Assembly: GCF_003334765.1 (NCBI RefSeq)
Contig: NZ_QOWT01000001.1
Length of the DNA stretch: 64,000 nucleotides
DNA from: Escherichia coli
GTDB lineage: Bacteria; Pseudomonadota; Gammaproteobacteria; Enterobacterales; Enterobacteriaceae
Strand: one strand, 5' to 3'
A program made the position numbers and the translations under genes. The notes below the pieces were generated by a model. That model saw only the letters and a program-made list of their open reading frames with translations, was not told the origin of the DNA and made no database searches. Of this stretch, positions 1,239 through 31,064 are shown in pieces; positions within the stretch are counted from its first letter, which is position 1, and each line of letters starts with the position of its first letter.

Positions 1239-2354
1239 TTAGAACTGGTAGACGATACCAACTGCAAACTGGTCATCAGCTGCTGCGCCAGTAATGGCGG
1301 CGTCATCTTTATCCAGCATGTTGAATTTGTATGCAGTATAAACGTTCATGTTCTTATTAAAGTAGTACCAGGTACCAACTTCAATGTAGTTCACACGGTC
1401 AGCGTCAACATATCTATGTCCAGGTACCCCTTTGATATCTTTACCTTTAGAGTACACATAACCTAAGGACGGACGCAGACCAAAGTCGAATTGATACTGA
1501 ACAACCGCTTCAAAGTTCTGGGTTTCATTGATAAGTTGATCACGCATTATTGTATTGCCTTCTCGATCGGCAACACCTGTATCAATAGAACCCGGAGTCA
1601 TATTACGAGTTTCGCCGTACATTACAGCTGCGTAGACATTGTTCGCGTCATACTTTGCAGCCAACGACCACAGTTCAGCATTTGAACCGTTTCCATCGGC
1701 AACTTGATCGTTGGTGCGATCAGATTTGCTATATGCACCAACGATACCAAAACCATTGATGTTATAGTCTACAGACAACGCATAGCCGTCACCATTTTGT
1801 TTCTTAGTGCTACGGTTGCTGTTTTTGCCTTGGTACTGAATCGCAAAATCAAGACCATCAACCAGGCCAAAGAAATCATAGTTACGGTAGGTTGCAACAC
1901 CGTTGGTACGACCATTCATGAAGTTGTCAGCGGAAGCCCAGGAATCGCCACCCCATTCAACTAACATATCGGTATAAGCTGCGGCATCATAAGCAACACC
2001 GTAGTTACGGCCATAGTCAAATGATCCTAACTCGTTATATTTCAAACCGGCGAAGGTTAAACGGGTTTTTTCCTGGTTTTCACCTTCGGGCTTGCTGGCG
2101 TCGAGGTTGTATTCAAACTGACCAAAACCAGTCAGTTCGCTGGTGATTTGGGTTTCACCTTTAACACCGAAACGAGCATAGGAGGTATCTTCGTTTTCGC
2201 TGTTATTATCATCAGTATTTGACCAGATGCGTTCGCCAACCATCTTGCCGTAGAAATCAACTTTATTGCCATCTTTATTATAAATTTCAGCCGCATTTGC
2301 TGCGCCAGCAACTAATAACGCCGGGACCAGCATTGCCAGAACTTTTCTTTTCAT
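1239..2354 (-). CDS. yedS: OmpC-family outer membrane porin YedS, apparently intact
   Basis: ORF track 1239..2384; porin-like signal peptide [21 protein letters not shown] and C-terminal ...VGIVYQF; start placed at internal ATG 2352-2354. Confidence 0.8.
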
Positions 2355-5957: not shown

Positions 5958-6866
5958 TGCGTCCTGAATAACTGGCGCAACTACGGGTTTTGCCGGAAAG
6001 AGATATTTTCCCAACGTGACCAGCACCACCGCGAAGACAATTACGCCGAGCGCCAGCCATTCAATCTTCGAAAGCGTCTCTCCACCCAGTCCCGTACCCA
6101 GCAAGACCGCGACCACCGGGTTAACGTAGGCGTAGCTGGTGGCGAGAGCCGGACTGACGTTGCGGATTAAATACATATAAGCGTTGATGGCGATAATCGA
6201 ACCAAACAGCGCCAGATAGCCGACCGCAAGGAAGCCTGAAAGGGAAGGGAGCGCCGTCAGTTTTTCACCCGCAATCATCGACGCGATCATTAACACCACG
6301 CCTGCCGCCAGCATCTCAATCGCACCCGCCATCATCCCTACAGGTAAGGTAATGTGCGAGCCATAAACTGAGCCAAACGCCCAGCTAATCGAGCCGATTA
6401 AAATCAGAATCGCGCCCCACGGATTGCCGCTTAAATTTCCACCGCTATTGAGCATGATGATTCCGGCAAGCCCAATGGCAATACCCACCCATTCCAGTTT
6501 GCGCGTTTTAATGCCAAACAGGCGGCTGAAGCACAGGGTAAAGAGGGGCACGGTTGCAACCACTACGGCGGCGATGCCGGAAGGAACATTTTGATGTTCG
6601 GCAACCGTCACCATGCCATTACCGACAGCCAGCAATAACAGGCCAATCAGCGCGGCATTGAGCAGCGGACGTAGCGGGGGGAGCTTGTGTCCGCGCAGTA
6701 GCAAAAATGCCAGCAATAAAATACCGGCTGCCAGGAATCGAACGCCCGCCATCATTAATGGAGGCCAGCTTTCCACGCCAATCCGAATGACAAAATAGGT
6801 TGAGCCCCAAATGATATACAACGCAAACAGCGCGCCAAAAAGCGGTAATAACTGGCGGAAACGCAT
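5946..6866 (-). CDS. yedA: EamA/DMT-family inner membrane transporter YedA
   Basis: 306 aa polytopic membrane ORF. Confidence 0.85.
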   Translation of the reverse strand: MRFRQLLPLFGALFALYIIWGSTYFVIRIGVESWPPLMMAGVRFLAAGILLLAFLLLRGHKLPPLRPLLNAALIGLLLLAVGNGMVTVAEHQNVPSGIAAVVVATVPLFTLCFSRLFGIKTRKLEWVGIAIGLAGIIMLNSGGNLSGNPWGAILILIGSISWAFGSVYGSHITLPVGMMAGAIEMLAAGVVLMIASMIAGEKLTALPSLSGFLAVGYLALFGSIIAINAYMYLIRNVSPALATSYAYVNPVVAVLLGTGLGGETLSKIEWLALGVIVFAVVLVTLGKYLFPAKPVVAPVIQDASSE

Positions 6867-7038
6867 AATCCCTCACGGTGGAAATAAAAAGGTGGTTCAT
6901 AGTAAACGTGAAAATCATTCTGCTGGCGAGAGATATAATTGCACTTGATTGTTAAAAAAATGTTGACCTGTGAAGCAAGTATCAGAGCTGCCGTTTTTGC
7001 TTCATACTTACACCCTTCAACAATAAAAATGAGAGGGA

Positions 7039-7956
7039 ATGCTTTTGGCCGGGAGTAGTTTACTGACGTTGCTCGATGATATCGCCACACTGCTGGACGA
7101 TATCTCCGTGATGGGCAAACTGGCGGCGAAGAAAACCGCCGGTGTATTAGGGGATGACTTATCGCTCAATGCGCAACAAGTTTCAGGTGTGCGGGCCAAC
7201 CGGGAACTTCCCGTGGTCTGGGGCGTGGCGAAAGGATCGCTGATCAATAAAGTGATTCTGGTGCCACTGGCGCTGATTATCAGTGCGTTTATCCCGTGGG
7301 CGATTACGCCATTGTTGATGATCGGTGGCGCGTTTCTCTGCTTTGAAGGGGTAGAGAAAGTGCTGCATATGCTGGAGGCGCGTAAACATAAAGAAGATCC
7401 GGCGCAGAGTCAGCAGCGTCTGGAGAAGCTGGCGGCGCAGGATCCGCTGAAGTTTGAAAAGGACAAAATAAAAGGGGCGATTCGTACCGATTTTATATTG
7501 TCTGCGGAAATCGTCGCCATCACGCTGGGGATTGTGGCCGAAGCGCCGTTGCTTAATCAGGTGCTGGTGCTTTCAGGCATCGCGCTGGTAGTGACCGTGG
7601 GCGTCTACGGTCTGGTAGGGGTTATCGTTAAGATTGATGACCTGGGGTATTGGCTGGCGGAAAAATCCAGCGCGCTGATGCAGGCATTAGGTAAAGGATT
7701 ATTGATTATCGCGCCCTGGCTGATGAAAGCGTTTTCGATTGTCGGCACGCTGGCGATGTTCCTCGTCGGCGGCGGGATTGTGGTACATGGTATTGCGCCG
7801 CTGCATCACGCCATTGAACATTTCGCCGGGCAGCAAAGTGCAGTGGTGGCGATGATATTACCGACTGTTTTAAATCTGATTCTTGGATTTATCATCGGCG
7901 GCATCGTGGTGCTGGGAGTGAAAGCCGTAGCAAAAATGCGCGGTCAGGCACATTAA
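7039..7956 (+). CDS. yedI: inner membrane protein YedI (DUF808)
   Basis: 305 aa membrane ORF. Confidence 0.85.
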
Positions 7957-8217: not shown

Positions 8218-8387
8218 AAGGGTATCATTAAGACCAGGCCGGATCACATCCGGCCTGGTGTGCCAATGCCTGCAATGAATGATAGTCGCGTCTTATCATG
8301 CCACCATTATAAAATTATCGCTGTTTTGCGGTACGCTATCGCCAGGTTATGCCAGAATCATAAAAAAGCAGGTGGGGAGTCGTCAGG

Positions 8388-10912
<2,525 letters not shown>

Positions 10913-11092
10913 TTACCAGGATGATTCTCAAAACAGCACAAATTATCAAAGATGATTTTGTTCGGGAGCGATCCCGCTGACGCCAGAGCCACCAAGGGGT
11001 GACGTGCGTCACATTTCTATTCATAAGTAGCGTTAATCATTCATATAGCGAATATTTTCTTGTCAGCGAAAAAAATTGCGGATAAGGTGATG

Positions 11093-11179
11093 AACACATC
11101 AGATTTCCTGGTGTAACGAATTTTTTAAGTGCTTCTTGCTTAAGCAAGTTTCATCCCGACCCCCTCAGGGTCGGGATTT
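11093..11179 (+). ncRNA. dsrA: DsrA small regulatory RNA
   Basis: Sequence aacacatcagatttcctggtgtaacgaattttttaagtgcttcttgcttaagcaagtttcatcccgaccccctcagggtcgggattt matches remembered DsrA, including its terminator hairpin. Confidence 0.85.
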
Positions 11180-11192
11180 TTTTATTGTGCAT

Positions 11193-11420
11193 TCAACGAT
11201 TCACTTCAGAGACGCTGAAGTCATGAATATCCAGTTCGAAGGCATCCGCCAATTCACGCCATGTATGATATTCACGTCCATCGACGCTAACGTGTTCAGA
11301 ATCGTTCTGGCTGCGATGAACTTCGCTTTCGCTAATTTCATTGATCGCCGCCAGCAGGGCATCGACATCGACGCTGACCTCACGTTTTGCGGTATCGCTG
11401 TACTCTTTTGCGGTTTTCAT
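11193..11420 (-). CDS. yodD: stress-induced protein YodD
   Basis: ORF track 11193..11435; product MKTAKEYSDTAKREVSVDVDALL... from ATG at 11420. Confidence 0.8.
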   Translation of the reverse strand: MKTAKEYSDTAKREVSVDVDALLAAINEISESEVHRSQNDSEHVSVDGREYHTWRELADAFELDIHDFSVSEVNR

Positions 11421-11492
11421 CATCTTTCCTCGCAACCGTTACTCTGTTGTTGCCGCCAGTCGTTAAGTCCGCCTGGCATCACTTAAGTATAG

Positions 11493-11771
<279 letters not shown>

Positions 11772-11814
11772 TCTTATTCAGCCTGACTGGTGGGAAACCA
11801 CCAGTCAGAATGTG

Positions 11815-12438
11815 TTAGCGCATGTTGACAAAAATACCATTAGTCACATTATCCGTCAGTCGGACGACATGGTAGATAACCTGTTTATTATGCGTTTTGA
11901 TCTTACGTTTAATATTACCTTTATGCGATGAAACGGTCTTGGCTTTGATATTCATTTGGTCAGAGATTTGAATGGTTCCCTGACCTGCCATCCACATTCG
12001 CAACATACTCGATTCGGTTCGGCTCAATGATAACGTCGGCATATTTAAAAACGAGGTTATCGTTGTCTCTTTTTTCAGAATATCGCCAAGGATATCGTCG
12101 AGAGATTCCGGTTTAATCGATTTAGAACTTATCAATAAATTTTTTCTGACCAATAGATATTCATCAAAATGAACATTGGCAATTGCCATAAAAACGATAA
12201 ATAACGTATTGGGATGTTGATTAATGATGTGCTTGATGTGCTGACTGTTAGAAGCATCATGGATGAAACAGTCCTCATTAATAAACACCACTGAAGGGCG
12301 CTGTGAATCACAAGCTATGGCAAGGTCATCAACGGTTTCAATGTCGTTGATTTCTCTTTTTTTAACCCCTCTACTCAACAGATACCCGGTTAAACCTAGT
12401 CGGGTGTAACTACATAAATCCATAATAATCGTTGACAT
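11815..12438 (-). CDS. rcsA: LuxR-family capsule (colanic acid) regulator RcsA
   Basis: 207 aa ORF with C-terminal LuxR HTH; AT-rich gene. Confidence 0.9.
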
Positions 12439-12688
12439 GGCATACCCTCACTCAATGCGTAACGATAATTCCCCTTACCTGAATATTTCATCATGACTAA
12501 ACGGAACAACATGGGTCACCTAATGCGCCACTCTCGCGATTTTTCAGGCGGACTTACTATCCCGTAAAGTGTTGTATAATTTGCCTGGAATTGTCTTAAA
12601 GTAAAGTAAATGTTGCGATATGTGAGTGAGCTTAAAACAAATATTTCGCTGCAGGAGTATCTTGGAAGATGTTCGTAGGTATTATTTT

Positions 12689-13800: not shown

Positions 13801-14538
13801 CTAGCTGTAAAAGCTCTGCGCCAGCGAACCGACCAGCAATTGCCAACCATCCACCAGTACAAACAGCATCAGTTTAAAGGGCAGAGCAATGGTGGCTGGG
13901 GGAACCATCATCATCCCCAATGCCATCAACACGCTGGCAATCACCAGGTCGATAATCAAAAAAGGAATGAAAATCGTGAAGCCTATCTGAAATGCGGTTT
14001 TCAACTCGCTGGTCACGTAGGCCGGGAGCAAAATGCGCATCGGCACGGCTTCAGGTCCCTGCAACGGGCCGGTATTCGCCAGTCTGGCAAACAACCCTAA
14101 ATCCGCCTCGCGGGTCTGACGCAGCATAAACTCACGCAGCGGCTGCGCCCCTTTTTCCAGCGCCTCCTGCATTGAGATTTTCTCTTCGCTAAATGGCTGG
14201 TACGCATCGACATAAATTTTGTCGATCACCGGTGACATAATAAAAAAGGTCAAAAACAGTGCCAGCCCCAGCAATACCTGGTTAGGTGGCGCGGAGGGTG
14301 TTCCCAGCGCGTTACGCAATAAACCAAAAACAATGATGATGCGGGTGAAACTGGTCATCATCAGTAAAATTGCCGGAATAAACGTCAACGAGGTGATGAA
14401 CACCAGCGTCTGCACCGGGAGCGACCAGCTTTGTCCACCGCCAGGCAGCGGCTGGCTGGTGATACCCGGCAGTTGCGCGAAGGCGAGGGGCGTAATCAGC
14501 CAGAGAAGGACAGGTGCGACAGACAATAAACGACGCAT
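13801..14538 (-). CDS. fliP: flagellar export apparatus protein FliP
   Basis: 245 aa ORF with signal peptide and TM segments. Confidence 0.9.
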
Positions 14539-19853: not shown

Positions 19854-23178
<3,325 letters not shown>

Positions 23179-23392
23179 CGCGCACCTCGTGGCTGATTAT
23201 GGACGGCGTTATTGGCAAAGTGGAACAAGACTCACTCCCGGGTCAGCAAACTCGAAAAATTGACGCTCCCATTATTTGTGCTTTCGTTTTTTTCTATCCG
23301 CCAATAAACCCGTTTTTTTGTTGCTATTTAGCGCCTTTGTCTTATTGACTTACTGGTAGGCTTTGCTACCAGAAATTATCCGGGAGATGAAA

Positions 23393-23707
23393 ATGTCAGC
23401 GATACAGGGGATTGAAGGGGTTATCAGCCAGTTACAGACCACGGCGATGAGTGCGCGTGCGCAGGAATCACTGCCGCAACCGACAATTAGTTTTGCCGGG
23501 CAGCTGCACGCCGCGCTCGATCGCATAAGCGATACACAAACAGCCGCCCGCACGCAGGCAGAAAAATTCACCCTCGGTGAGCCCGGCGTGGCGCTAAACG
23601 ATGTGATGACCGATATGCAAAAAGCCTCAGTTTCTATGCAAATGGGGATTCAGGTGCGTAATAAGCTGGTGGCGGCGTATCAGGAAGTGATGTCCATGCA
23701 GGTGTAG
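23393..23707 (+). CDS. fliE: flagellar hook-basal body protein FliE
   Basis: ORF track 23363..23707; start at ATG 23393 giving [15 protein letters not shown]...; divergent from fliF. Confidence 0.9.
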
Positions 23708-24050
23708 GTTTTGTAACCTGTTGACTATGCTTGTTTATTATATCCGATCCCACAGCGTGGGGCATGGATGGGGCAAACTCACTCAATTTCTGGTTTAAAA
23801 TGGATACCTGATCCTGAAAGTTTTCTGCCATCCACGATCCGTAAACGCGATAACATGTTTTGTCTTCGCTTTGCTCCCAGGAAGAGTGAACTCATTCGTT
23901 AGCCTGGGGTTCCTTCTGATCATTATTGTTCCTGCCTTTATCTCTTGCCACGCCAGAGCCCCCTGGATACACATACACCAGGATGAAAACGGTGAGTTGT
24001 GTTCAAACTGTAGTACAATTCTCTCCAGTATGAACAGGAAAGAATATGCT

Positions 24051-24383
24051 ATGAACCCTTATATTTATCTTGGTGGCGCAATACTTGCAGAGGTCATTGG
24101 TACAACCTTAATGAAGTTTTCAGAGGGGTTTACACGGTTATGGCCCTCTGTTGGCACAATTATTTGCTATTGTGCATCATTCTGGTTATTAGCTCAGACG
24201 CTGGCTTATATACCTACAGGGATTGCTTATGCTATCTGGTCAGGCGTCGGTATCGTTCTGATTAGTTTGCTTTCCTGGGGATTTTTTGGTCAACGACTGG
24301 ACCTGCCAGCTATCATAGGCATGATGTTGATTTGTGCCGGTGTGTTAGTCATTAACTTGTTGTCACGAAGTGCACCGCATTAA
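24051..24383 (+). CDS. emrE: SMR-family multidrug efflux transporter EmrE
   Basis: ORF track 23871..24383; internal ATG 24051 gives 110 aa MNPYIYLGGAILAEVIGTTLMKFSEGFTRLWPSVG... with four TM segments. Confidence 0.85.
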   Translation: MNPYIYLGGAILAEVIGTTLMKFSEGFTRLWPSVGTIICYCASFWLLAQTLAYIPTGIAYAIWSGVGIVLISLLSWGFFGQRLDLPAIIGMMLICAGVLVINLLSRSAPH

Positions 24384-24551
24384 AAAATAATTATCCTTGA
24401 GATAACAGGAATCTGATTTGTGCATATTATGGCTAATGTTCGGGGCACCTTTATAATTATGATTGCATTTGCGCGATCATTGCGCCTTTATGCATAATGA
24501 GATCAAGGCACATCAAATAAAATAACGATAGGTCACAACAATGAGGTTTTT

Positions 24552-25103
24552 ATGAAAAAACTTATCGTTTCAAGTGTATTGGCATTCATAACATTTTCTG
24601 CGCAGGCCGCAGCATTTCAGGTCACTAGTAATGAAATAAAAACAGGAGAGCAACTTACAACGTCTCATGTATTTTCTGGATTTGGGTGTGAAGGTGGTAA
24701 TACATCGCCCTCATTAACCTGGTCTGGTGCTCCTGAAGGCACCAAAAGCTTTGCCGTAACTGTGTATGATCCAGATGCTCCTACAGGCAGTGGATGGTGG
24801 CACTGGACTGTTGCTAATATTCCAGCAACTGTAACATATTTGCCCGCTGATGCAGGAAGACGTGATGGTACAAAACTTCCGACTGGTGCTGTTCAAGGCC
24901 GAAATGATTTTGGTTATGCAGGATTTGGTGGAGCATGTCCTCCCAAAGGAGATAAACCCCATCATTACCAGTTTAAAGTATGGGCTCTAAAAACTGATAA
25001 AATTCCTGTGGATTCTAATTCCAGCGGAGCGTTAGTTGGTTATATGCTTAATGCCAATAAAATTGCAACCGCTGAGATAACACCAGTTTATGAGATAAAG
25101 TAG
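24552..25103 (+). CDS. ybcL: periplasmic PEBP/RKIP-family protein YbcL
   Basis: 183 aa ORF with signal peptide and PEBP-like motifs (VYDPDAP..., GDKPHHYQFKVWAL). Confidence 0.8.
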   Translation: MKKLIVSSVLAFITFSAQAAAFQVTSNEIKTGEQLTTSHVFSGFGCEGGNTSPSLTWSGAPEGTKSFAVTVYDPDAPTGSGWWHWTVANIPATVTYLPADAGRRDGTKLPTGAVQGRNDFGYAGFGGACPPKGDKPHHYQFKVWALKTDKIPVDSNSSGALVGYMLNANKIATAEITPVYEIK

Positions 25104-25112
25104 GGTAAGAGT

Positions 25113-25910
25113 ATGCTGGCAAAAGATAAGACTAACCTAAAGATTGAAGAAATACGGATGCATAAACATCATGAGATTCACAGGGTTAAGCCTCTTATGC
25201 CAGCTTTATGTCGTATCCGTCAGGGAAAAAAAGTTATCAATTGGGAGACGCATAGTCTAACTGTTGATAATAATCAGATAATATTATTTCCCTGTGGATA
25301 TGAATTTTATATTGCGAATTATCCAGAAGCAGGTCTTTATCTTGCAGAAATGCTTTATTATCCCATTGATCTAATTGAAAAGTTTCAAAAATTTTATGCG
25401 ATAACTGATCAAATTCGTAACACGACAGGTTTCTGCTTACCTCAGAACCCCGAGTTAATATATTGTTGGGAGCAACTAAAAACATCTATTTCCCGAGGCT
25501 TCTCAACGCAAATTCAGGAACACTTAGCAATGGGCGTTCTACTTTCATTAGGAGCACATCATGTTAATTGTTTACTTTTATCAGATAGTAAACAATCATT
25601 AATAAGTCGTTGTTATAACCTAATGCTATCCGAACCTGGAACAAAATGGACAGCAAACAAGGTAGCGAGATATCTCTACATTTCTGTTTCCACATTGCAT
25701 CGCCGTCTGGCAAGCGAGGGAGTAAGTTTTCAAAGTATATTGGACGACGTGAGGTTAAATAATGCGTTGTCTGCTATACAAACGACAGTAAAACCCATCA
25801 GCGAGATTGCCAGGGAAAATGGTTACAAGTGTCCTTCTCGTTTTACTGAAAGGTTCCATAATCGTTTTAAGATAACACCAAGAGAGCTAAGAAAAGCGTC
25901 CAGAGAGTAA
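25113..25910 (+). CDS. ybcM: AraC-family transcriptional regulator YbcM-like
   Basis: 265 aa ORF with C-terminal AraC-type HTH; very AT-rich. Confidence 0.75.
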
Positions 25911-26066
25911 AAGTATTTTATGAAGGAGCAACAGCATCGATTTTTATTTTGGAAAATAAATACGGCATACTCAACCTATTGGAGTCTGAACAATCCGGTG
26001 ACTTCTGCGCTAATCGGGGACGTTTCTAAGCACATATAATTGATACTATCTTCCTCCATCACAATT

Positions 26067-26591
26067 TCAGAAATGCACGTGTGATTTTTTTGCATCCGGC
26101 GTTTGGACTATGTGGAGCTCAAGAGTGGGAAAGTTACAAGAGGTTGAGGGGATAATTAAAGGGATGCTTATGACATTAGATATCCGGTTAGGTGCGGATA
26201 TCGTTGTTATTAAATCTAGTTGATACGTTAAGATGCAGCTACTGACAAAATAGCCAGGACTCCACAAAACGCCTTTGTCGTAATACCTGACTGCAATATC
26301 TGGTCGATCTCGTCGCAGTAACCTACTCGATACGCCTTTGAGGCTGTTTACCAGACTGGATATCGCCAGTTTGGGAGGATAGTTAATTAACAAATGGACG
26401 TGATCTGGTCCGCCATCCATTTCAACCCGTTCAGCTTCAAAATCAGCACATACATTTGAAAAGTAAGTGCGTAGTTTTTCTGTCGCGTCATGGTCAAAAA
26501 TCTGACGTCGGTATTTAGTAACGAAGACTAGGTGAACATGCTTCAGGAAAACACAATGCCTTCCGCGTCGGATATCGGTTTCTTTTTTCAT
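26067..26591 (-). CDS. tnpA: IS200/IS605-family transposase TnpA (HuH Y1), possibly 3'-altered
   Basis: ORF track 26067..26636; MKKETDIRRGRHCVFLKHVHLVFVTKYRR... with HuH motif HVHLL; C-terminal tail is low-complexity and longer than typical TnpA. Confidence 0.7.
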   Translation of the reverse strand: MKKETDIRRGRHCVFLKHVHLVFVTKYRRQIFDHDATEKLRTYFSNVCADFEAERVEMDGGPDHVHLLINYPPKLAISSLVNSLKGVSSRLLRRDRPDIAVRYYDKGVLWSPGYFVSSCILTYQLDLITTISAPNRISNVISIPLIIPSTSCNFPTLELHIVQTPDAKKSHVHF

Positions 26592-26905
26592 AGGCCAAAG
26601 TATGATTTGGCCCATGAAACGACTACAGGCATTCAAATTCCGGTTAAGACCAGGTGGTCAACAGGAGCGTGAAATGAGGCGCTTCGCAGGCGCATGTCGT
26701 TTCGTTTTCAATCGTGCTCTGGCGCTTCAGAATGAGAATCATGAGGCCGGTAATAAATACATCCCTTACGGGAAAATGGCTTCCTGGTTGGTTGAGTGGA
26801 AAAATGCCACTGAAACGCAATGGCTTAAAGATTCGCCCTCACAGCCATTGCAACAGTCACTGAAAGACCCTGAGCGGGCTTACAAAAACTTCTTCCGGCT
26901 TCGTC
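26067..26905. mobile_element. degenerate IS200/IS605-family insertion sequence (tnpA plus 5' fragment of tnpB)
   Basis: Divergent tnpA / tnpB start codons about 25 bp apart; tnpB homology ends after about 95 codons; exact ends not determined. Confidence 0.6.
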
Positions 26906-26943
26906 ACCACGCTCAAACGGTGTGCTACCTATCGCGGCTATAA
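26614..26943 (+). pseudogene. tnpB: TnpB (OrfB) N-terminal fragment
   Basis: ORF track 26602..26943; MKRLQAFKFRLRPGGQQEREMRRFAGACRFVFNRAL... matches TnpB N-termini for about 95 aa, then an unrelated tail and stop. Confidence 0.7.
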
Positions 26944-27322
26944 AAACAGCTTGTCCATCAGCACGATAGATAAAATAAGGCTGCTTTTTGTCGCCTTCTT
27001 TTTTCCACTCAAACCAGCCATCGGCAAAACAGATTGCCCGACCATGTTGCCAGAGCGGTTTAAACATGTGACTGGTTGCGGCAGTTTCTACGCGGGCGTT
27101 AATCAGCGGCGGTTTATCCCACCATCCGGGAGCATATCCCCAGAAAACCGGATCCAGATGAAGGTGTTCATCACGTTCACTGAGCAGAAGGACTTTGGTT
27201 CCCGGCGCGACGTTGTATCTGCCAATAGGTTCGGGATCGTAGGGAATATCGCGTTCAATATCTTCCGCGAGAAGCGCAAGGTAATCTTCACGCGTTTGGG
27301 ATTGGGCAAAGCGTCCACACAT
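26825..27322 (-). pseudogene. yedK: SOS-response associated peptidase YedK, 3'-truncated and fused to IS sequence
   Basis: 165 aa ORF MCGRFAQSQTREDYLALLAEDIERDIPYDPEP... is shorter than the 222 aa I recall for full-length YedK; its 3' part overlaps the tnpB fragment on the opposite strand. Confidence 0.7.
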
Positions 27323-27430
27323 AGAAACCTCCTGAGGTCACACTGAAAAGAATAGGAGAGGGGGCGGGTTAAATCTATGTGATAGAGAGGCAACGATATT
27401 CCCGCTGTGGGCCACAGCGGGAATGAGGGA

Positions 27431-27664
27431 TTACTTCTGAATTAAATAACGAATGGTCGGCCCGTCTTGCTGAATATCCAGCACCGTATAGCCGTGATTA
27501 CGCGCATCCAGTGGAATATTATTGATCGACTGCGGACAGTCGCTCACCACTTCCAGGATCTCCCCTTTTTTTAACTGCGGCATCGCCTCAAGGGTTGCGA
27601 CTGCCGGATAAGGGCAGGGTTCACCCACCATATCAAGACGGTAATCAGGAACGATATTTTTCAT
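27431..27664 (-). CDS. yedF: TusA-like sulfurtransferase YedF
   Basis: 77 aa ORF with CPxP motif (GEPCPYP). Confidence 0.88.
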   Translation of the reverse strand: MKNIVPDYRLDMVGEPCPYPAVATLEAMPQLKKGEILEVVSDCPQSINNIPLDARNHGYTVLDIQQDGPTIRYLIQK

Positions 27665-28866
27665 GCGATCTCCTTAGCAGTCTGCGGTGCCGCACGGCGG
27701 AAGAAGCGTTTTTCCCAGCCAATAATCAACATTAGAGCAGCAAACAACAGCAAATATGTCACCAGCAGGCCGCCCATCGGGCCAAAGGTTTTCAGCAGGT
27801 TGATTTTGTCCCAGTCGGTGGCCAGCGCCGGAGCGAAATCATCCCAGTAGTACGCCAGAATCGTTGAGCCGATCACGTTGCCCAGACCGACCCACCAGTA
27901 GTGCACCTGGCCTTCTACCGCGCGGTACATCCAGCCGGTTTCGCAGCCGCCTGCCAGCACGATGCCAAAACCAAACAGTAAACCACCAATTACCGCGTTT
28001 GGTCCCGCCCACATGATTTTGGGTTCAACGCCTAACTGTACGTAACTGAAGATCCCGATGGCACTTACCGCCATACCGATAATGATTGCTTTCGCCATAT
28101 GGGTACGTCCGGTGATCCACATATCGCGGAACGCCGAAGTAAAGCAGATTTGCGCACGTTCAATCAGTAAACCAAAGCCGACGCCAAACAGCATTGCCAG
28201 CCCCAGTTTGGGCTGGTTCATCGCCGTCAGCAGCGCCCAGCCCAGCAGGCCGAAAAAGACCAGCATCCCGAGACGAAAACGACGCCGCGCCTGATCCGGT
28301 TTTTGCGTCAACGGTGAGGCAGCAGAAACTTTCTGCATTTTCACGGGAATACGGAAGATGGGCAGAAGGGTAAAGCGCGCGCCAAACCATGAACCAATGG
28401 CAGTGGCGATGGCAAAGAACCAGGCGTGCAGCGAGAACTGTGGAATTCCGGTAAAGAACGCCGCCAGGTTACAGCCCATTGCCAGACGTGCGCCAAAACC
28501 GGCGATAATACCGCCAATGATGGCCTGCATAATGCGGATACGGCTGCGCGGCATGCGCAGTTTGACATTGTTGGCCCACAGCGCTGCGGCAAAACAGCCG
28601 CCAAACATACCGAGGATCATCATTCCGTCGATGCGGGTTAATGGCGATCCTTCCAGATGGATAATTTTAAAATAACCCCACTCTTCAGCATGGACGCCGA
28701 ACAACTGCAGGAGCTGACCGCCCCAACGGGTAAATTCACCTGTGACAGCCCAAAAGGTGCCAGTGATGCCAAAATAGTAAGTGGAGAGAATACCCGCCGC
28801 GATGACCGCGGGGATGGGCGCCCAGAATTTAATCAACCAGGCGTGTTTGAATTGCTGCCATGACAT
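27661..28866 (-). CDS. yedE: inner membrane transporter YedE (selenium/sulfur-compound transport family)
   Basis: 401 aa polytopic membrane ORF overlapping yedF start. Confidence 0.88.
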   Translation of the reverse strand: MSWQQFKHAWLIKFWAPIPAVIAAGILSTYYFGITGTFWAVTGEFTRWGGQLLQLFGVHAEEWGYFKIIHLEGSPLTRIDGMMILGMFGGCFAAALWANNVKLRMPRSRIRIMQAIIGGIIAGFGARLAMGCNLAAFFTGIPQFSLHAWFFAIATAIGSWFGARFTLLPIFRIPVKMQKVSAASPLTQKPDQARRRFRLGMLVFFGLLGWALLTAMNQPKLGLAMLFGVGFGLLIERAQICFTSAFRDMWITGRTHMAKAIIIGMAVSAIGIFSYVQLGVEPKIMWAGPNAVIGGLLFGFGIVLAGGCETGWMYRAVEGQVHYWWVGLGNVIGSTILAYYWDDFAPALATDWDKINLLKTFGPMGGLLVTYLLLFAALMLIIGWEKRFFRRAAPQTAKEIA

Positions 28867-29049
28867 GAATGTAGCCTCTGAACTCAGAAGGTTTGAAACA
28901 AGAGTCGCGAATCATACACCATGCAAATTTATTTTCGGGGTAATAATTCACAAAAATAATGGTTAGATCAAATTTCTCTCTGAACCTGGAAAGGCTGGCG
29001 ACATCAGGGCTTTAATGCCACAATCCTCTTTTCTTCTCATGCAGGACGA

Positions 29050-29466
29050 ATGATGAAAAAACTCGCAATTGCAGGTGCGCTCATGTTGCTGGCGGGCTGT
29101 GCCGAAGTCGAAAACTATAACAATGTCGTGAAAACCCCCGCGCCGGACTGGCTGGCGGGCTACTGGCAGACCAAAGGGCCGCAACGTGCGTTGGTCAGTC
29201 CGGAAGCGATAGGCAGCCTCATTGTCACTAAAGAGGGCGATACCCTGGATTGCCGTCAGTGGCAGCGGGTGATTGCCGTGCCGGGTAAGTTGACATTGAT
29301 GTCTGATGATCTCACTAACGTTACCGTAAAACGTGAGCTGTACGAGGTTGAGCGTGACGGTAACACCATTGAGTACGATGGTATGACGATGGAGCGTGTG
29401 GATCGCCCGACGGCAGAGTGTGCCGCCGCGCTGGATAAAGCGCCGTTACCGACGCCACTGCCGTAA
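29050..29466 (+). CDS. yedD: lipoprotein YedD
   Basis: 138 aa ORF with lipobox LLAGC. Confidence 0.85.
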   Translation: MMKKLAIAGALMLLAGCAEVENYNNVVKTPAPDWLAGYWQTKGPQRALVSPEAIGSLIVTKEGDTLDCRQWQRVIAVPGKLTLMSDDLTNVTVKRELYEVERDGNTIEYDGMTMERVDRPTAECAAALDKAPLPTPLP

Positions 29467-29499
29467 TGAAATCTCCCCGGCTTGCCGCCGGGGATGGAT

Positions 29500-30987
29500 T
29501 TAAATCACCTCTTCGATAACCCACACGCTGACGCTGCCGCCGTTGCAAAAGAAGGTCGCTTCGCCGTTTTCGTCTGTCACTACGCTCTCTTGCCGGTTCC
29601 CCAGAAAATCACGCCAGGTTTTATTGCCGTAATTCTCTCCCAGATGAATGGTTTTTTCGCCATCATCTCCGTTCGACATGACCACCACGCAGCCGGGATA
29701 TTCGTCGGTGCCACTGCGGCTAAAGGCAATGCAGTTCGGATGGTCGAAAAATAACGTCTGTACACCGTGGGCGAAACGCTGACGGGCGAGAATTAACTCA
29801 TCAAGCTGTTCGATTATTGGCATATCTATCGGATAGGTTTGCCCGTCACCACCGACATCTTCGTAATGTGCACCGTAGAGGTCCGGATAGAACACCGAAG
29901 GAACGCCATTTTCCCGCAACAAAATTAAGGCATACGCCAGCGGTTTAAACCACGGTTCGACGGGGGCTTCGAGGGCTTGCAACGGTTGGGTGTCGTGGTT
30001 GGCAACGAGGGTTACGGCGTGAAAAGGATCGGCTTCCACCAGCGTCCCAGTGAAGATCTGCGTCATGTCGTAGTCGCGACCCATGCGCGATGCTTCATGG
30101 AATTTCATCTGCAGCGGCGCATCAAACAGCATGGTTTTGCCTTCCACCTGATCAATATACGTTTGCAGTTTATCGACTTCATGCGACCAGTATTCAGCCA
30201 CAATAAACAACGGCTTTGGCGCAACTTCCTGTACGTGTTCGATCCACTCTTTATAAAACCATGCCGGAATATGTTTGACCGCATCAAGACGAAAGCCGTC
30301 GCATTGCGTTTGTTCCATCACCCAGCGCGCCCAGTATTTAATCTCTTCCGTCACGGCATGATTGCGAAAATCGATATTCTCCCCCATCAGATAATCGAAA
30401 TTACCGAGTTCATCATCAACCTGATCGTTCCAGCCTTCTCCGGTATAGTCGTTAACAATTTTAAAAATGCCATCTTCATCAGGGTTTTCGATATGGTCGA
30501 TACCGCTAAAACATTTGAAATCCCAGATAAACTGCGAGTATTGCCCGGCACGAGCGGGGAAGGTGTAACGCGTCCAGCCTTCACACTCAATGATTTCTTC
30601 GTCAATTTGCGTACGGTCATCAGCATTTACACGCTGCACGCGAATAGCTTCTTTTTCATCCGCGCCCATTTTGTGGTTGACTACCACGTCCAGCAGCACC
30701 GCAATGTCATTACGTTTCAGGGCGTCAATGGCGGCCAGCAGTTGTGCTTTATCACCATATTTAGTAGGGATGCTGCCTTTCTGATCAAACTCACCTAGAT
30801 CAAATAAATCATAGGAGTCGTAGCCGACCGAATAGCCGCCCGATGCGCCTTTATAGGCGGGCGGCAACCAGACCATATTGATACCAATATCATTAAAACC
30901 GTCTGCGCGCTCGGCCAGTTCAGGCCAGAGCTTACCGCCTTCCGGGTAATACCAGTGAAAACATTGTAACAGCGTGGGATTACGCAT
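29500..30987 (-). CDS. amyA: cytoplasmic alpha-amylase AmyA
   Basis: 495 aa GH13 [24 protein letters not shown]... Confidence 0.9.
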
Positions 30988-31064
30988 TCTTCGACTCCAT
31001 TCAAGGGGAATATTAGAAGCGTAGCCGTAATCGGATTATTCGCGAGCCATCGGCTCATTAAGAT

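Follow-up and report, generated by a model that had tools for sequence, protein, structure and literature searches.

The DNA between fliE and yedK in the 64,000-nucleotide Escherichia coli stretch analyzed here (the window) is very probably the remnant of a decayed lambdoid prophage, spanning 23688-26225 and integrated at the last 20 nucleotides of fliE via an IntG-type tyrosine integrase. fliE and yedK are convergent genes flanking the attachment site. In the order of events that we infer, a prophage would have been inserted by an integrase of this type at the site formed by those 20 nucleotides, and deletions would then have stripped nearly all phage functions. The survivors are two integrase fragments, two accessory ("moron") units derived from the nin region, a ylcH stub, and the tail of a Q gene. 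One accessory unit consists of emrE together with the region upstream of it, the other of the ybcL-ybcM operon, likewise with its upstream region; less decayed relatives retain, in addition, attR and a porin moron of NmpC type. An IS200/IS605 element, IS609-like, would have entered at a later time, beyond attR and at the stop codon of yedK. In the window lineage two further deletions would then have eliminated what was left of the porin, together with attR, the two ends of the IS, most of tnpB, and the final third of yedK. Unable to move by itself, the block spreads through vertical descent and homologous recombination via the flanking core genes. The features of the locus are as follows.

23393..23707, plus strand: fliE, a context gene (PGAP annotation of locus L001, which is 100% identical; 96% identity to K-12 fliE)
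23688..23707, no strand: attL core TGATGTCCATGCAGGTGTAG, the last 20 nt of fliE
23730..23870, minus strand: C-terminal fragment of an IntG-type integrase (tblastn and phage DNA match)
23855..23974, minus strand: second integrase fragment, in a different frame, covering about aa 225-277 in the mid-part of the protein (tblastn)
23975..24050, plus strand: region upstream of emrE common to DLP12, comprising the last 9 nt of ren and intergenic DNA (blastn)
24051..24383, plus strand: emrE, SMR proton-coupled multidrug/osmolyte efflux pump (NCBIfam NF042984)
24397..24551, plus strand: region upstream of ybcL and start of the ybcLM unit, where homology to DLP12 (from 10739) and to E. albertii resumes at one same point
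24552..25103, plus strand: ybcL, predicted periplasmic PEBP/RKIP-family protein with signal peptide (NCBIfam PRK09818)
25113..25910, plus strand: ybcM, AraC-family regulator (matches to AraC-type C-terminal HTH)
25911..26117, plus strand: DLP12-homologous DNA past ybcM, running into ylcH (blastn)
26127..26225, plus strand: remnant of a lambdoid Q antiterminator gene, reduced to its 3' end (82% identical to DLP12 14242-14342, where quuD ends)
26235..26606, minus strand: tnpA of an IS200/IS605 (IS609-like) element, 3'-truncated, IS end lost (NCBIfam transpos_IS200)
26602..26898, plus strand: N-terminal fragment of tnpB (NCBIfam guided_TnpB)
26885..27322, minus strand: truncated yedK, first ~146 codons left (NCBIfam PRK09951, positions 1-142 of 222)

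The GC content of 23855-26225 is 0.401, compared with 0.52-0.53 in the flanks (0.528 for the fli genes, 0.517 for 26885-31000), in agreement with an earlier note on this DNA that had described an AT-rich segment. The left edge had been placed at 23708 in that note; the foreign DNA starts instead inside fliE, at the att core (23688). An Rfam scan of 22500-28500 (E ≤ 0.1) returned no RNA family, and scans for promoters (5, against a shuffled expectation of 8.6) and terminators (4, against 3.4) gave numbers not above chance. Nothing specific on the fliE-yedK locus as a prophage site was found in the literature.

The integrase, stated previously to be lacking, is represented by two minus-strand fragments between fliE and emrE (23730-23870 and about 23855-23974), joined at 23854/23855. 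The first corresponds to residues 387-433 of a 434-residue phage tyrosine integrase, with the YRVYG catalytic-Tyr region, and aligns by tblastn with 81% identity over 47 residues (E = 6e-24 for a 501-bp segment, 1.75e-19 for the locus set). PHROG and NCBIfam matches of the short peptide alone are marginal (integrase E 0.036-0.15), so that the identification rests on the match to phage. Positions 23688-23853 share 97% DNA identity with the 3' end of IdasGreatGrand int plus 37 bp, and the homology stops exactly at 23688, inside fliE. In other genomes, PGAP labels the same stretch an "integrase" pseudogene. The second fragment is 40% identical to residues 210-277 of IdasGreatGrand Int (tblastn, E = 5e-8); at the DNA level it is 74% identical to the corresponding segment of the full-length int in the prophage of locus L015. 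In tblastn comparisons with phages, the two fragments match lambdoid and P22-like integrases. The integrases of DLP12 and E. albertii have no similarity to them and were ruled out as their source. Genomes devoid of the block carry the same C-terminal fragment and diverge from the window at one breakpoint, 23854/5. Given the difference in amino acid identity (40% vs 81%), the two fragments could derive from two successive prophages and not from one.

The attR repeat is missing from the window itself, and the evidence for a duplicated core comes from relatives. In Nissle 1917 (L004, 9997-10016) and in locus L005 (8795-8814) the remnant ends on the right with a 19/20 copy, in both cases exactly at the backbone boundary; in Nissle 1917 this is where backbone sequence starts again, at a distance of 16 bp from the stop of yedK. 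The attR copy of the intact L015 prophage begins at window base 23688. A full-length IntG-type integrase adjoins fliE in six genomes, and in the one inspected, NZ_OZ040490.1, fliE and the block are separated by an intact P22-like prophage of 40 kb, whose attR begins at base 23688. Judged from these sequences, the 3' end of fliE is evidently a phage attachment site in use to this day.

The order int (minus), emrE (plus), ybcLM (plus), ylcH' and Q' (plus) is colinear with DLP12 and PhiR34_1, and Nissle 1917 adds a minus-strand porin, which is intact; its Q', porin and upstream DNA are contiguous, as in DLP12. By blastn, window 23975-24392 is 91.6% identical to DLP12 8240-8655, and window 24397-26117 is 89.8% identical to DLP12 10739-12459, which reaches into ylcH (DLP12 12369-12470). 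The stretch from the 3' end of Q is also matched by phage Q genes. The absence of ybcK, already noted, holds: the window has 4 nt where DLP12 has 2083 bp with ylcJ-ybcK. The edges of this indel show no informative repeats; the two junctions in DLP12 have just a 6-bp AATAAT in common. Among the phages and prophages searched, none has emrE followed directly by ybcLM without ybcK, and the ybcK-less state may therefore be either a deletion or an unsampled phage variant.

Assignment of the three encoded proteins as homologues of EmrE, YbcL, and YbcM is borne out by scores against curated models and by the few differences from K-12. EmrE matches NF042984 over its full length (238 bits, cut-off 226, residues 1-109), retains the membrane-embedded Glu14 in MNPYIYLGGAILAE, and differs from the K-12 protein at 2 of 110 residues. 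YbcL likewise gives a full-length match to PRK09818 (402 bits, equivalog cut-off 277), and an N-terminal signal peptide, MKKLIVSSVLAFITFSAQAAA, can be read straight from the sequence; the protein has 6 differences in 183 residues from K-12 YbcL and one from that of Nissle, and residue 99 (mature residue 78) is Ala, where the variant reported to suppress neutrophil migration has Thr. AraC-family matches in YbcM cover residues ~153-263, a C-terminal AraC-type double HTH, and 244 of its 265 residues are identical to K-12 YbcM (21 differ). YbcM binds upstream of ybcLM, and deletion of ybcM in K-12 lowers survival of H2O2 (PMC8464067); YbcL of UPEC suppresses neutrophil migration (PMC4810123). By analogy with this work on K-12 and UPEC, the products encoded here are expected to be a proton-coupled SMR efflux pump, a periplasmic PEBP-family protein, and an AraC-type autoregulator of ybcLM.

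The block was described earlier as accessory, and it is, but it is not rare: of 5426 complete E. coli genomes, 2621 (48%) have the fliE-emrE junction, without ybcK. A query covering the integrase C-terminal stretch was matched by 5335 of the same 5426 genomes, and every sampled genome lacking the block matched the query only at the fliE end and the integrase C-terminal fragment. Carriers form a decay series of 453 Nissle-type genomes, about 979 with a complete IS, and 1111 of the window type. The Nissle type, which includes Nissle 1917 and the type strain ATCC 11775, has the block, no IS, and an intact yedK; both of these strains keep the Q-gene tail, the NmpC-like porin, and the 19/20 attR repeat next to yedK. 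Copies of the block differ by 0.9-2.4% among Nissle 1917, strain 97.3, and the window, and the flanking core genes by 2-3%. Because the left junction is common to all 2621 genomes, a single acquisition is indicated. Only three plasmid records match, two of them chromosome-sized "plasmids", which leaves no plasmid route.

The earlier note proposed that emrE-ybcL-ybcM travels as a cargo module found in more than one genomic context. The several contexts are real. DLP12 and viable lambdoid phages have the genes in their nin region, with ylcJ-ybcK between emrE and ybcL; ybcK is absent both beside fliE in E. coli and in an E. albertii island that has a P4-type integrase and is situated between sapB and sapC. 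It is the carriers that move these genes; nothing shows travel by the module itself, and the copy at fliE sits in DNA colinear with a lambdoid prophage. Moreover, phage Lambda_4C10 has emrE-ybcK and lacks ybcLM, making emrE and ybcLM two separable units. The spacer between them measures 4 nt in the window and about 115 bp in the E. albertii island; in phages it is 2083 bp long and carries YbcK, a large serine recombinase. One elaboration, to which we assign a small probability, treats the two units as fixed-end exchangeable cassettes with the spacer as a recombination hotspot, YbcK or another site-specific activity shuffling them between lambdoid phages and unrelated integrative islands; if true, it would explain how the same cassettes come to be within the sap operon of E. 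albertii, on a P4-type island. Improbable as well is the original proposal, a self-contained emrE-ybcL-ybcM module relocating by its own or a nearby recombination mechanism. It draws on the presence of both units in three carriers with near-equal outer ends (76-101 bp upstream of emrE, 105-207 bp past ybcM), the two carriers without ybcK, and the variable hotspot formed by the spacer. However, no terminal repeats, transposase, or recombinase are found at the ends of the module or of its units, the single IS remnant lies on one side only, and neither a composite transposon nor a self-mobile cassette is thus apparent. At fliE the supposed module lies within a stretch of colinear phage DNA that has att repeats at its limits, it comprises two units, as Lambda_4C10 demonstrates, and the one junction shared by all carriers points to its having arrived there once.

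A non-phage integrative island with a P4-type integrase, such as that of E. albertii, is a very improbable source of the remnant. In E. albertii NBRC 107761 an intact integrase directly precedes emrE-ybcL-ybcM, a placement like that of the int fragments in the window. Nevertheless, no similarity is detectable between these fragments and the integrase of E. albertii, which has the opposite orientation, the fragments match lambdoid and P22-like phage integrases, and the DNA after ybcM is Q tail, joined by porin DNA in relatives.

The degenerate IS element reported after ybcM is present as truncated IS200/IS605 genes: tnpA covers positions 2-112 of 126 in the transpos_IS200 profile and tnpB positions 1-86 of 389 in guided_TnpB. 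tnpB is full-length in L005, relative to which (8247-8948) the tnpA region carries a deletion, and both IS ends have been lost through deletions, so that a functional IS200/IS605 element no longer exists here. yedK, listed previously as a backbone gene, is not intact: it retains only its first ~146 of 222 codons, and the shortened product would be expected no longer to form abasic-site crosslinks. The tnpB'/yedK' junction (1111 of 5426 genomes), created by a deletion, shows ~14 bp of imperfect microhomology at 26885-26898. The position of the IS remnant between block and yedK had suggested an IS-mediated junction. That IS200/IS605 brought in the block or made its yedK junction is, however, barely credible. 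The IS did not deliver the block, which the 453 Nissle-type genomes carry without an IS; the microhomology is as in illegitimate recombination; and IS200/IS605 elements mobilize only themselves, as single-stranded circles. In strain 97.3 a complete IS lies at the yedK stop, 18 bp outside attR and without target duplication, and it is thus a simple later insertion.

The idea that the DLP12 segment was recently copied within the genome and lacks ybcK through deletion, although it would account for the shared gene order, is rejected as having next to no chance of being correct, given a DNA identity to DLP12 of only 90-92%, a single place matching the block query in some genomes with the fliE block, and an att and int context of its own.

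The locus read as a decayed lambdoid prophage is a textbook example of a prophage that decayed but kept accessory genes, and it leaves the understanding of such elements unchanged. With about half of sequenced E. coli carrying the block, it is an ordinary, already annotated feature. Its significance lies partly in its contents, as a well-studied drug pump, EmrE, and a reported immune modulator of UPEC, YbcL, reside in a fixed prophage relic of half of E. coli. The location of emrE and ybcL here is not DLP12, as it is in K-12, which matters when the K-12 context is extrapolated to clinical strains. The locus also identifies the 3' end of fliE as a phage attachment site still used, and about one complete E. 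coli genome in five proves to have a truncated yedK.

The closest known relatives of the remnant are DLP12, the cryptic lambdoid prophage at the argU site of K-12, and viable phages such as PhiR34_1, which share the order and orientation (ren)-emrE...ybcL-ybcM-ylcH...Q-porin. Identity between DLP12 and the window is 90-92% over emrE and ybcLM, and in both DLP12 and PhiR34_1 the integrase gene at the left end reads outward, as in the window. The two remnants differ in attachment site (argU versus the fliE 3' end) and in integrase, which is unrelated, IntD finding no match in the window. The window, furthermore, has no ylcJ-ybcK, has lost ybcN through most of Q, and is far more decayed than DLP12, with no replication, lysis, or structural genes.

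The gene orders given for K-12 in the earlier note, in DLP12 and between yedK and fliE (yedL/yedN/intG), are correct. The second of these is the K-12 "cryptic prophage PR-G" (intG pseudogene by fliE), which occupies the same site and has the C-terminal integrase fragment in common with the window; identity to K-12 over window 23000-23854 is 96%. Beyond the breakpoint that they share, further int sequence follows in K-12, then yedN (an EspR-like effector pseudogene), yedL (GNAT), and an intact yedK; in the window the int middle fragment comes next and then the emrE block. The Escherichia phage IdasGreatGrand, whose int end and core are those 97% identical to the window, and the P22-like prophage of NZ_OZ040490.1 share the window's integrase family and its fliE-3'-end att core, but these are complete phages without emrE or ybcLM. 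The E. albertii NBRC 107761 island has emrE-ybcL-ybcM at 82-85% DNA identity, without ybcK and beside an integrase. That integrase is of P4 type, the chromosomal site is different, and the island, flanked by an 11-bp repeat, CGTAAGGCATA, carries extra cargo, namely a LysR regulator, a hydrolase, and an oxidoreductase of the OYE type.

The accessory segment beside fliE is real, correctly located and already well annotated. Its gene content was established by ORF listing and family (profile) scans.

Features of the fliE-yedK segment (window coordinates)
23393-23707, plus strand: fliE
24051-24383: emrE, 238 bits to the NCBIfam EmrE model (cut-off 226)
24552-25103: ybcL, 402 bits to PRK09818 (cut-off 277)
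25113-25910: ybcM, with an AraC-type HTH
Minus strand: IS200/IS605 tnpA with its 3' end missing, profile positions 2-112 of 126
After tnpA: tnpB N-terminal stub, profile positions 1-86 of 389
26885-27322, minus strand: truncated yedK, profile positions 1-142 of 222 only

GC content is 0.401 in 23855-26225, as compared with 0.528 in the fli genes, 0.517 in the right flank and 0.495 across the entire window, and the encoded proteins differ from those of K-12 by 2 (EmrE), 6 (YbcL) and 21 (YbcM) residues. ORFs, family scores, composition and protein comparison together bear out the core of the earlier note, which had described emrE, ybcL, ybcM and a degenerate IS in an AT-rich segment. The K-12 layout that it gave is also correct: DLP12, the cryptic lambdoid prophage of that strain, has the order ren-emrE-ylcJ-ybcK-ybcL-ybcM-ylcH-ybcN...quuD-nmpC, and the K-12 yedK-fliE interval holds yedL, a yedN pseudogene and intG, the last annotated 'cryptic prophage PR-G'. 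Alignment to K-12 by blastn divides the segment as follows.

Window matches to K-12 (blastn, DNA identity)
23000-23854: fliF, fliE and part of intG, 96%
23975-24392: DLP12 emrE plus 76 bp upstream, 91.6%
24397-26117: DLP12 from 155 bp upstream of ybcL into ylcH, 89.8%
26127-26225: 3' end of the DLP12 Q gene (quuD), 82%
26885-28000: yedK (first 437 nt only), yedF and yedE, 97%

Likeness to DLP12 thus extends beyond the three genes and includes the tail of the Q gene, a first hint that the segment is what remains of a prophage and more than a bare cassette.

The stretch following fliE, which is common to nearly all E. coli and in many genomes carries the PGAP label of an 'integrase' pseudogene, matches lambdoid phage integrases when its translation is compared with phage genomes by tblastn. 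The top match is Escherichia phage IdasGreatGrand (86% over 49 residues, E 2e-19), and the matched part is the C-terminus of its 434-aa integrase, with the YRVYG catalytic-tyrosine region among the matched residues. In DNA, window 23853-23688 and phage positions 3030-3196 share 97% identity; the shared stretch comprises the last ~43 int codons and 37 bp past the int stop, and homology stops within fliE, 20 nt before its stop codon. A second integrase piece was detected by tblastn in the 120 bp (23855-23974) that separate the breakpoint from the emrE upstream region, corresponding to about aa 225-277 in a different frame, with 40% amino acid identity; its DNA is 74% identical to the corresponding part of a full-length prophage int. 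With two fragments in place, the earlier note was wrong to exclude an integrase. A 19/20 copy of the last 20 nt of fliE (TGATGTCCATGCAGGTGTAG) lies at 9997-10016 of the Nissle 1917 locus (L004) and at 8795-8814 of the strain 97.3 locus (L005), precisely where yedK-side backbone homology restarts, 16 bp from the yedK stop. In these two loci the core and its repeat make up an attL/attR pair. The best-supported reading of the segment is a decayed lambdoid prophage at the 3' end of fliE: a phage would have integrated there and then lost everything except accessory genes and scraps. One of the later deletions removed attR from the window lineage. Recognising the segment as a prophage relic whose att site can be identified adds modestly to existing knowledge.

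The prophage model predicts that some genomes should carry a complete prophage with full-length integrase beside fliE. A search with the IdasGreatGrand int and core finds six genomes in which a full-length integrase overlaps annotated fliE. NZ_OZ040490.1 contains a 40-kb P22-like prophage (int, xis, recT, repressor, replication, nin, Q, lysis, terminase, portal, capsid, tailspike) between fliE and the emrE block. Directly to its right lies the equivalent of window 23688-27500 at 99.4% identity, starting from the first base of the core, 23688, which implies that a new phage integrated at the old attL and displaced the relic downstream. The fliE attachment site is still in use.

Among 5426 complete E. 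coli genomes, the exact fliE-to-emrE junction occurs in 2621 and contiguous emrE-ybcL-ybcM without ybcK in 2622. Block-less genomes, taken as a spread sample of the match ranking, each match window 23680-23854 alone and so diverge from the window at one breakpoint. Non-block states of the interval are of K-12 type, O157 type (espR4/espR3 effector genes with GNAT genes) or near-empty. The O157:H7 locus has an integrase C-terminal fragment twice (9047-9193 and 10995-11151), with an espR effector gene and then a GNAT gene or pseudogene behind each copy, a pattern suggestive of tandem duplication or of two integrations in succession at the fliE site.

Block-bearing loci form a decay series on the yedK side. 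In Nissle 1917 and the type strain ATCC 11775 the three genes are followed by an intact NmpC-like porin and intact yedK, a state found in 453 genomes. (Window 1438-2180, with 70-80% DNA similarity to this porin, is probably a further, yedS-like porin gene or pseudogene.) Strain 97.3, representing about 979 genomes (2090 minus 1111), has lost most of the porin and carries a complete IS609-like tnpA/tnpB at the stop of an intact yedK. Relative to 97.3, the window form has two more deletions (L005 8247-8948 and 9613-10710), which took what was left of the porin together with both IS ends, most of tnpB and the final third of yedK; the resulting tnpB'/yedK' junction is present in 1111 of the 5426 genomes. 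Block copies differ by 0.9-2.4% among the lineages compared, against 2-3% for the flanking core, and one left junction is common to all block-bearing genomes. These findings would fit one old acquisition that then spread by descent and by recombination in the flanks.

Because Nissle-type genomes carry the block without an IS, the element had no role in acquisition. Its insertion in strain 97.3 follows TTATC and left no target duplication, in line with expectation for the IS200/IS605 family, and the tnpB'/yedK' joint has ~14 bp of imperfect microhomology. The deletion fuses yedK to tnpB' and leaves the first ~146 of 222 codons. YedK is an SRAP/HMCES-family abasic-site crosslinking protein and, judging from the frequency of the truncating junction, roughly one strain in five probably has no functional copy. 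Many otherwise identical genomes, e.g. strain 104 and APEC O2-211, have an extra 868-bp IS5-family pseudogene in the tnpA remnant (window 26515-26518; 6220-7087 of the PGAP-annotated locus L001), with a 4-bp overlap at the insertion point. Between yedK and yedF, a ~27-bp palindrome (27398-27424, an opposite-strand self-match) may be a bidirectional terminator or REP-like element.

Residue 78 of mature YbcL (precursor position 99; codon at window 24846-24848), on which neutrophil suppression would depend, varies among the three strains: the window has Ala, Nissle 1917 Thr and K-12 Val. Functions of the window genes may be inferred from the literature: UPEC YbcL suppresses neutrophil migration, an activity decided by a single residue (review, PMC4810123), and in K-12 YbcM binds upstream of ybcLM and influences survival under peroxide (PMC8464067).

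The block was not found on plasmids in a plasmid search, and no phage in the collection searched has emrE directly followed by ybcLM. A YbcM search of one genome per prokaryotic species returned E. coli and E. albertii only. A 5-kb contig from a Lachnospiraceae-labelled MAG (SFGN01000137.1), 99% identical to the Nissle-type fliE-emrE-porin-yedK locus, is almost certainly a mis-binned E. coli contig. The viable lambdoid phage PhiR34_1 and its relatives share a DLP12-like order, O-P-ren-emrE-ylcJ-ybcK-ybcL-ybcM-ybcN...Q-porin-lysis, whereas Lambda_4C10 and relatives have ren-emrE-ybcK followed by a hydrolase in place of ybcLM, so that emrE and ybcLM are separable. In E. albertii NBRC 107761, a ~7.2-kb island (L012 5265-12482) occupies exactly the junction of sapB and sapC within the sapABCDF operon, bounded by the 11-bp repeat CGTAAGGCATA; it encodes emrE, ybcL, ybcM, an OYE flavin oxidoreductase, a hydrolase, a LysR regulator and an intact P4-type integrase unrelated to the window's integrase fragments. 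The proposal of genes found in several contexts is right; it is phages and an integrative island that carry them, and the module shows no sign of moving by itself. The unit boundaries agree in the three contexts: that of emrE stops just past the emrE stop codon, and that of ybcLM begins ~155 bp ahead of ybcL. Between the two units lie 4 nt in the window, about 115 bp including a terminator-like hairpin in E. albertii, and 2083 bp with ylcJ-ybcK in the phages.
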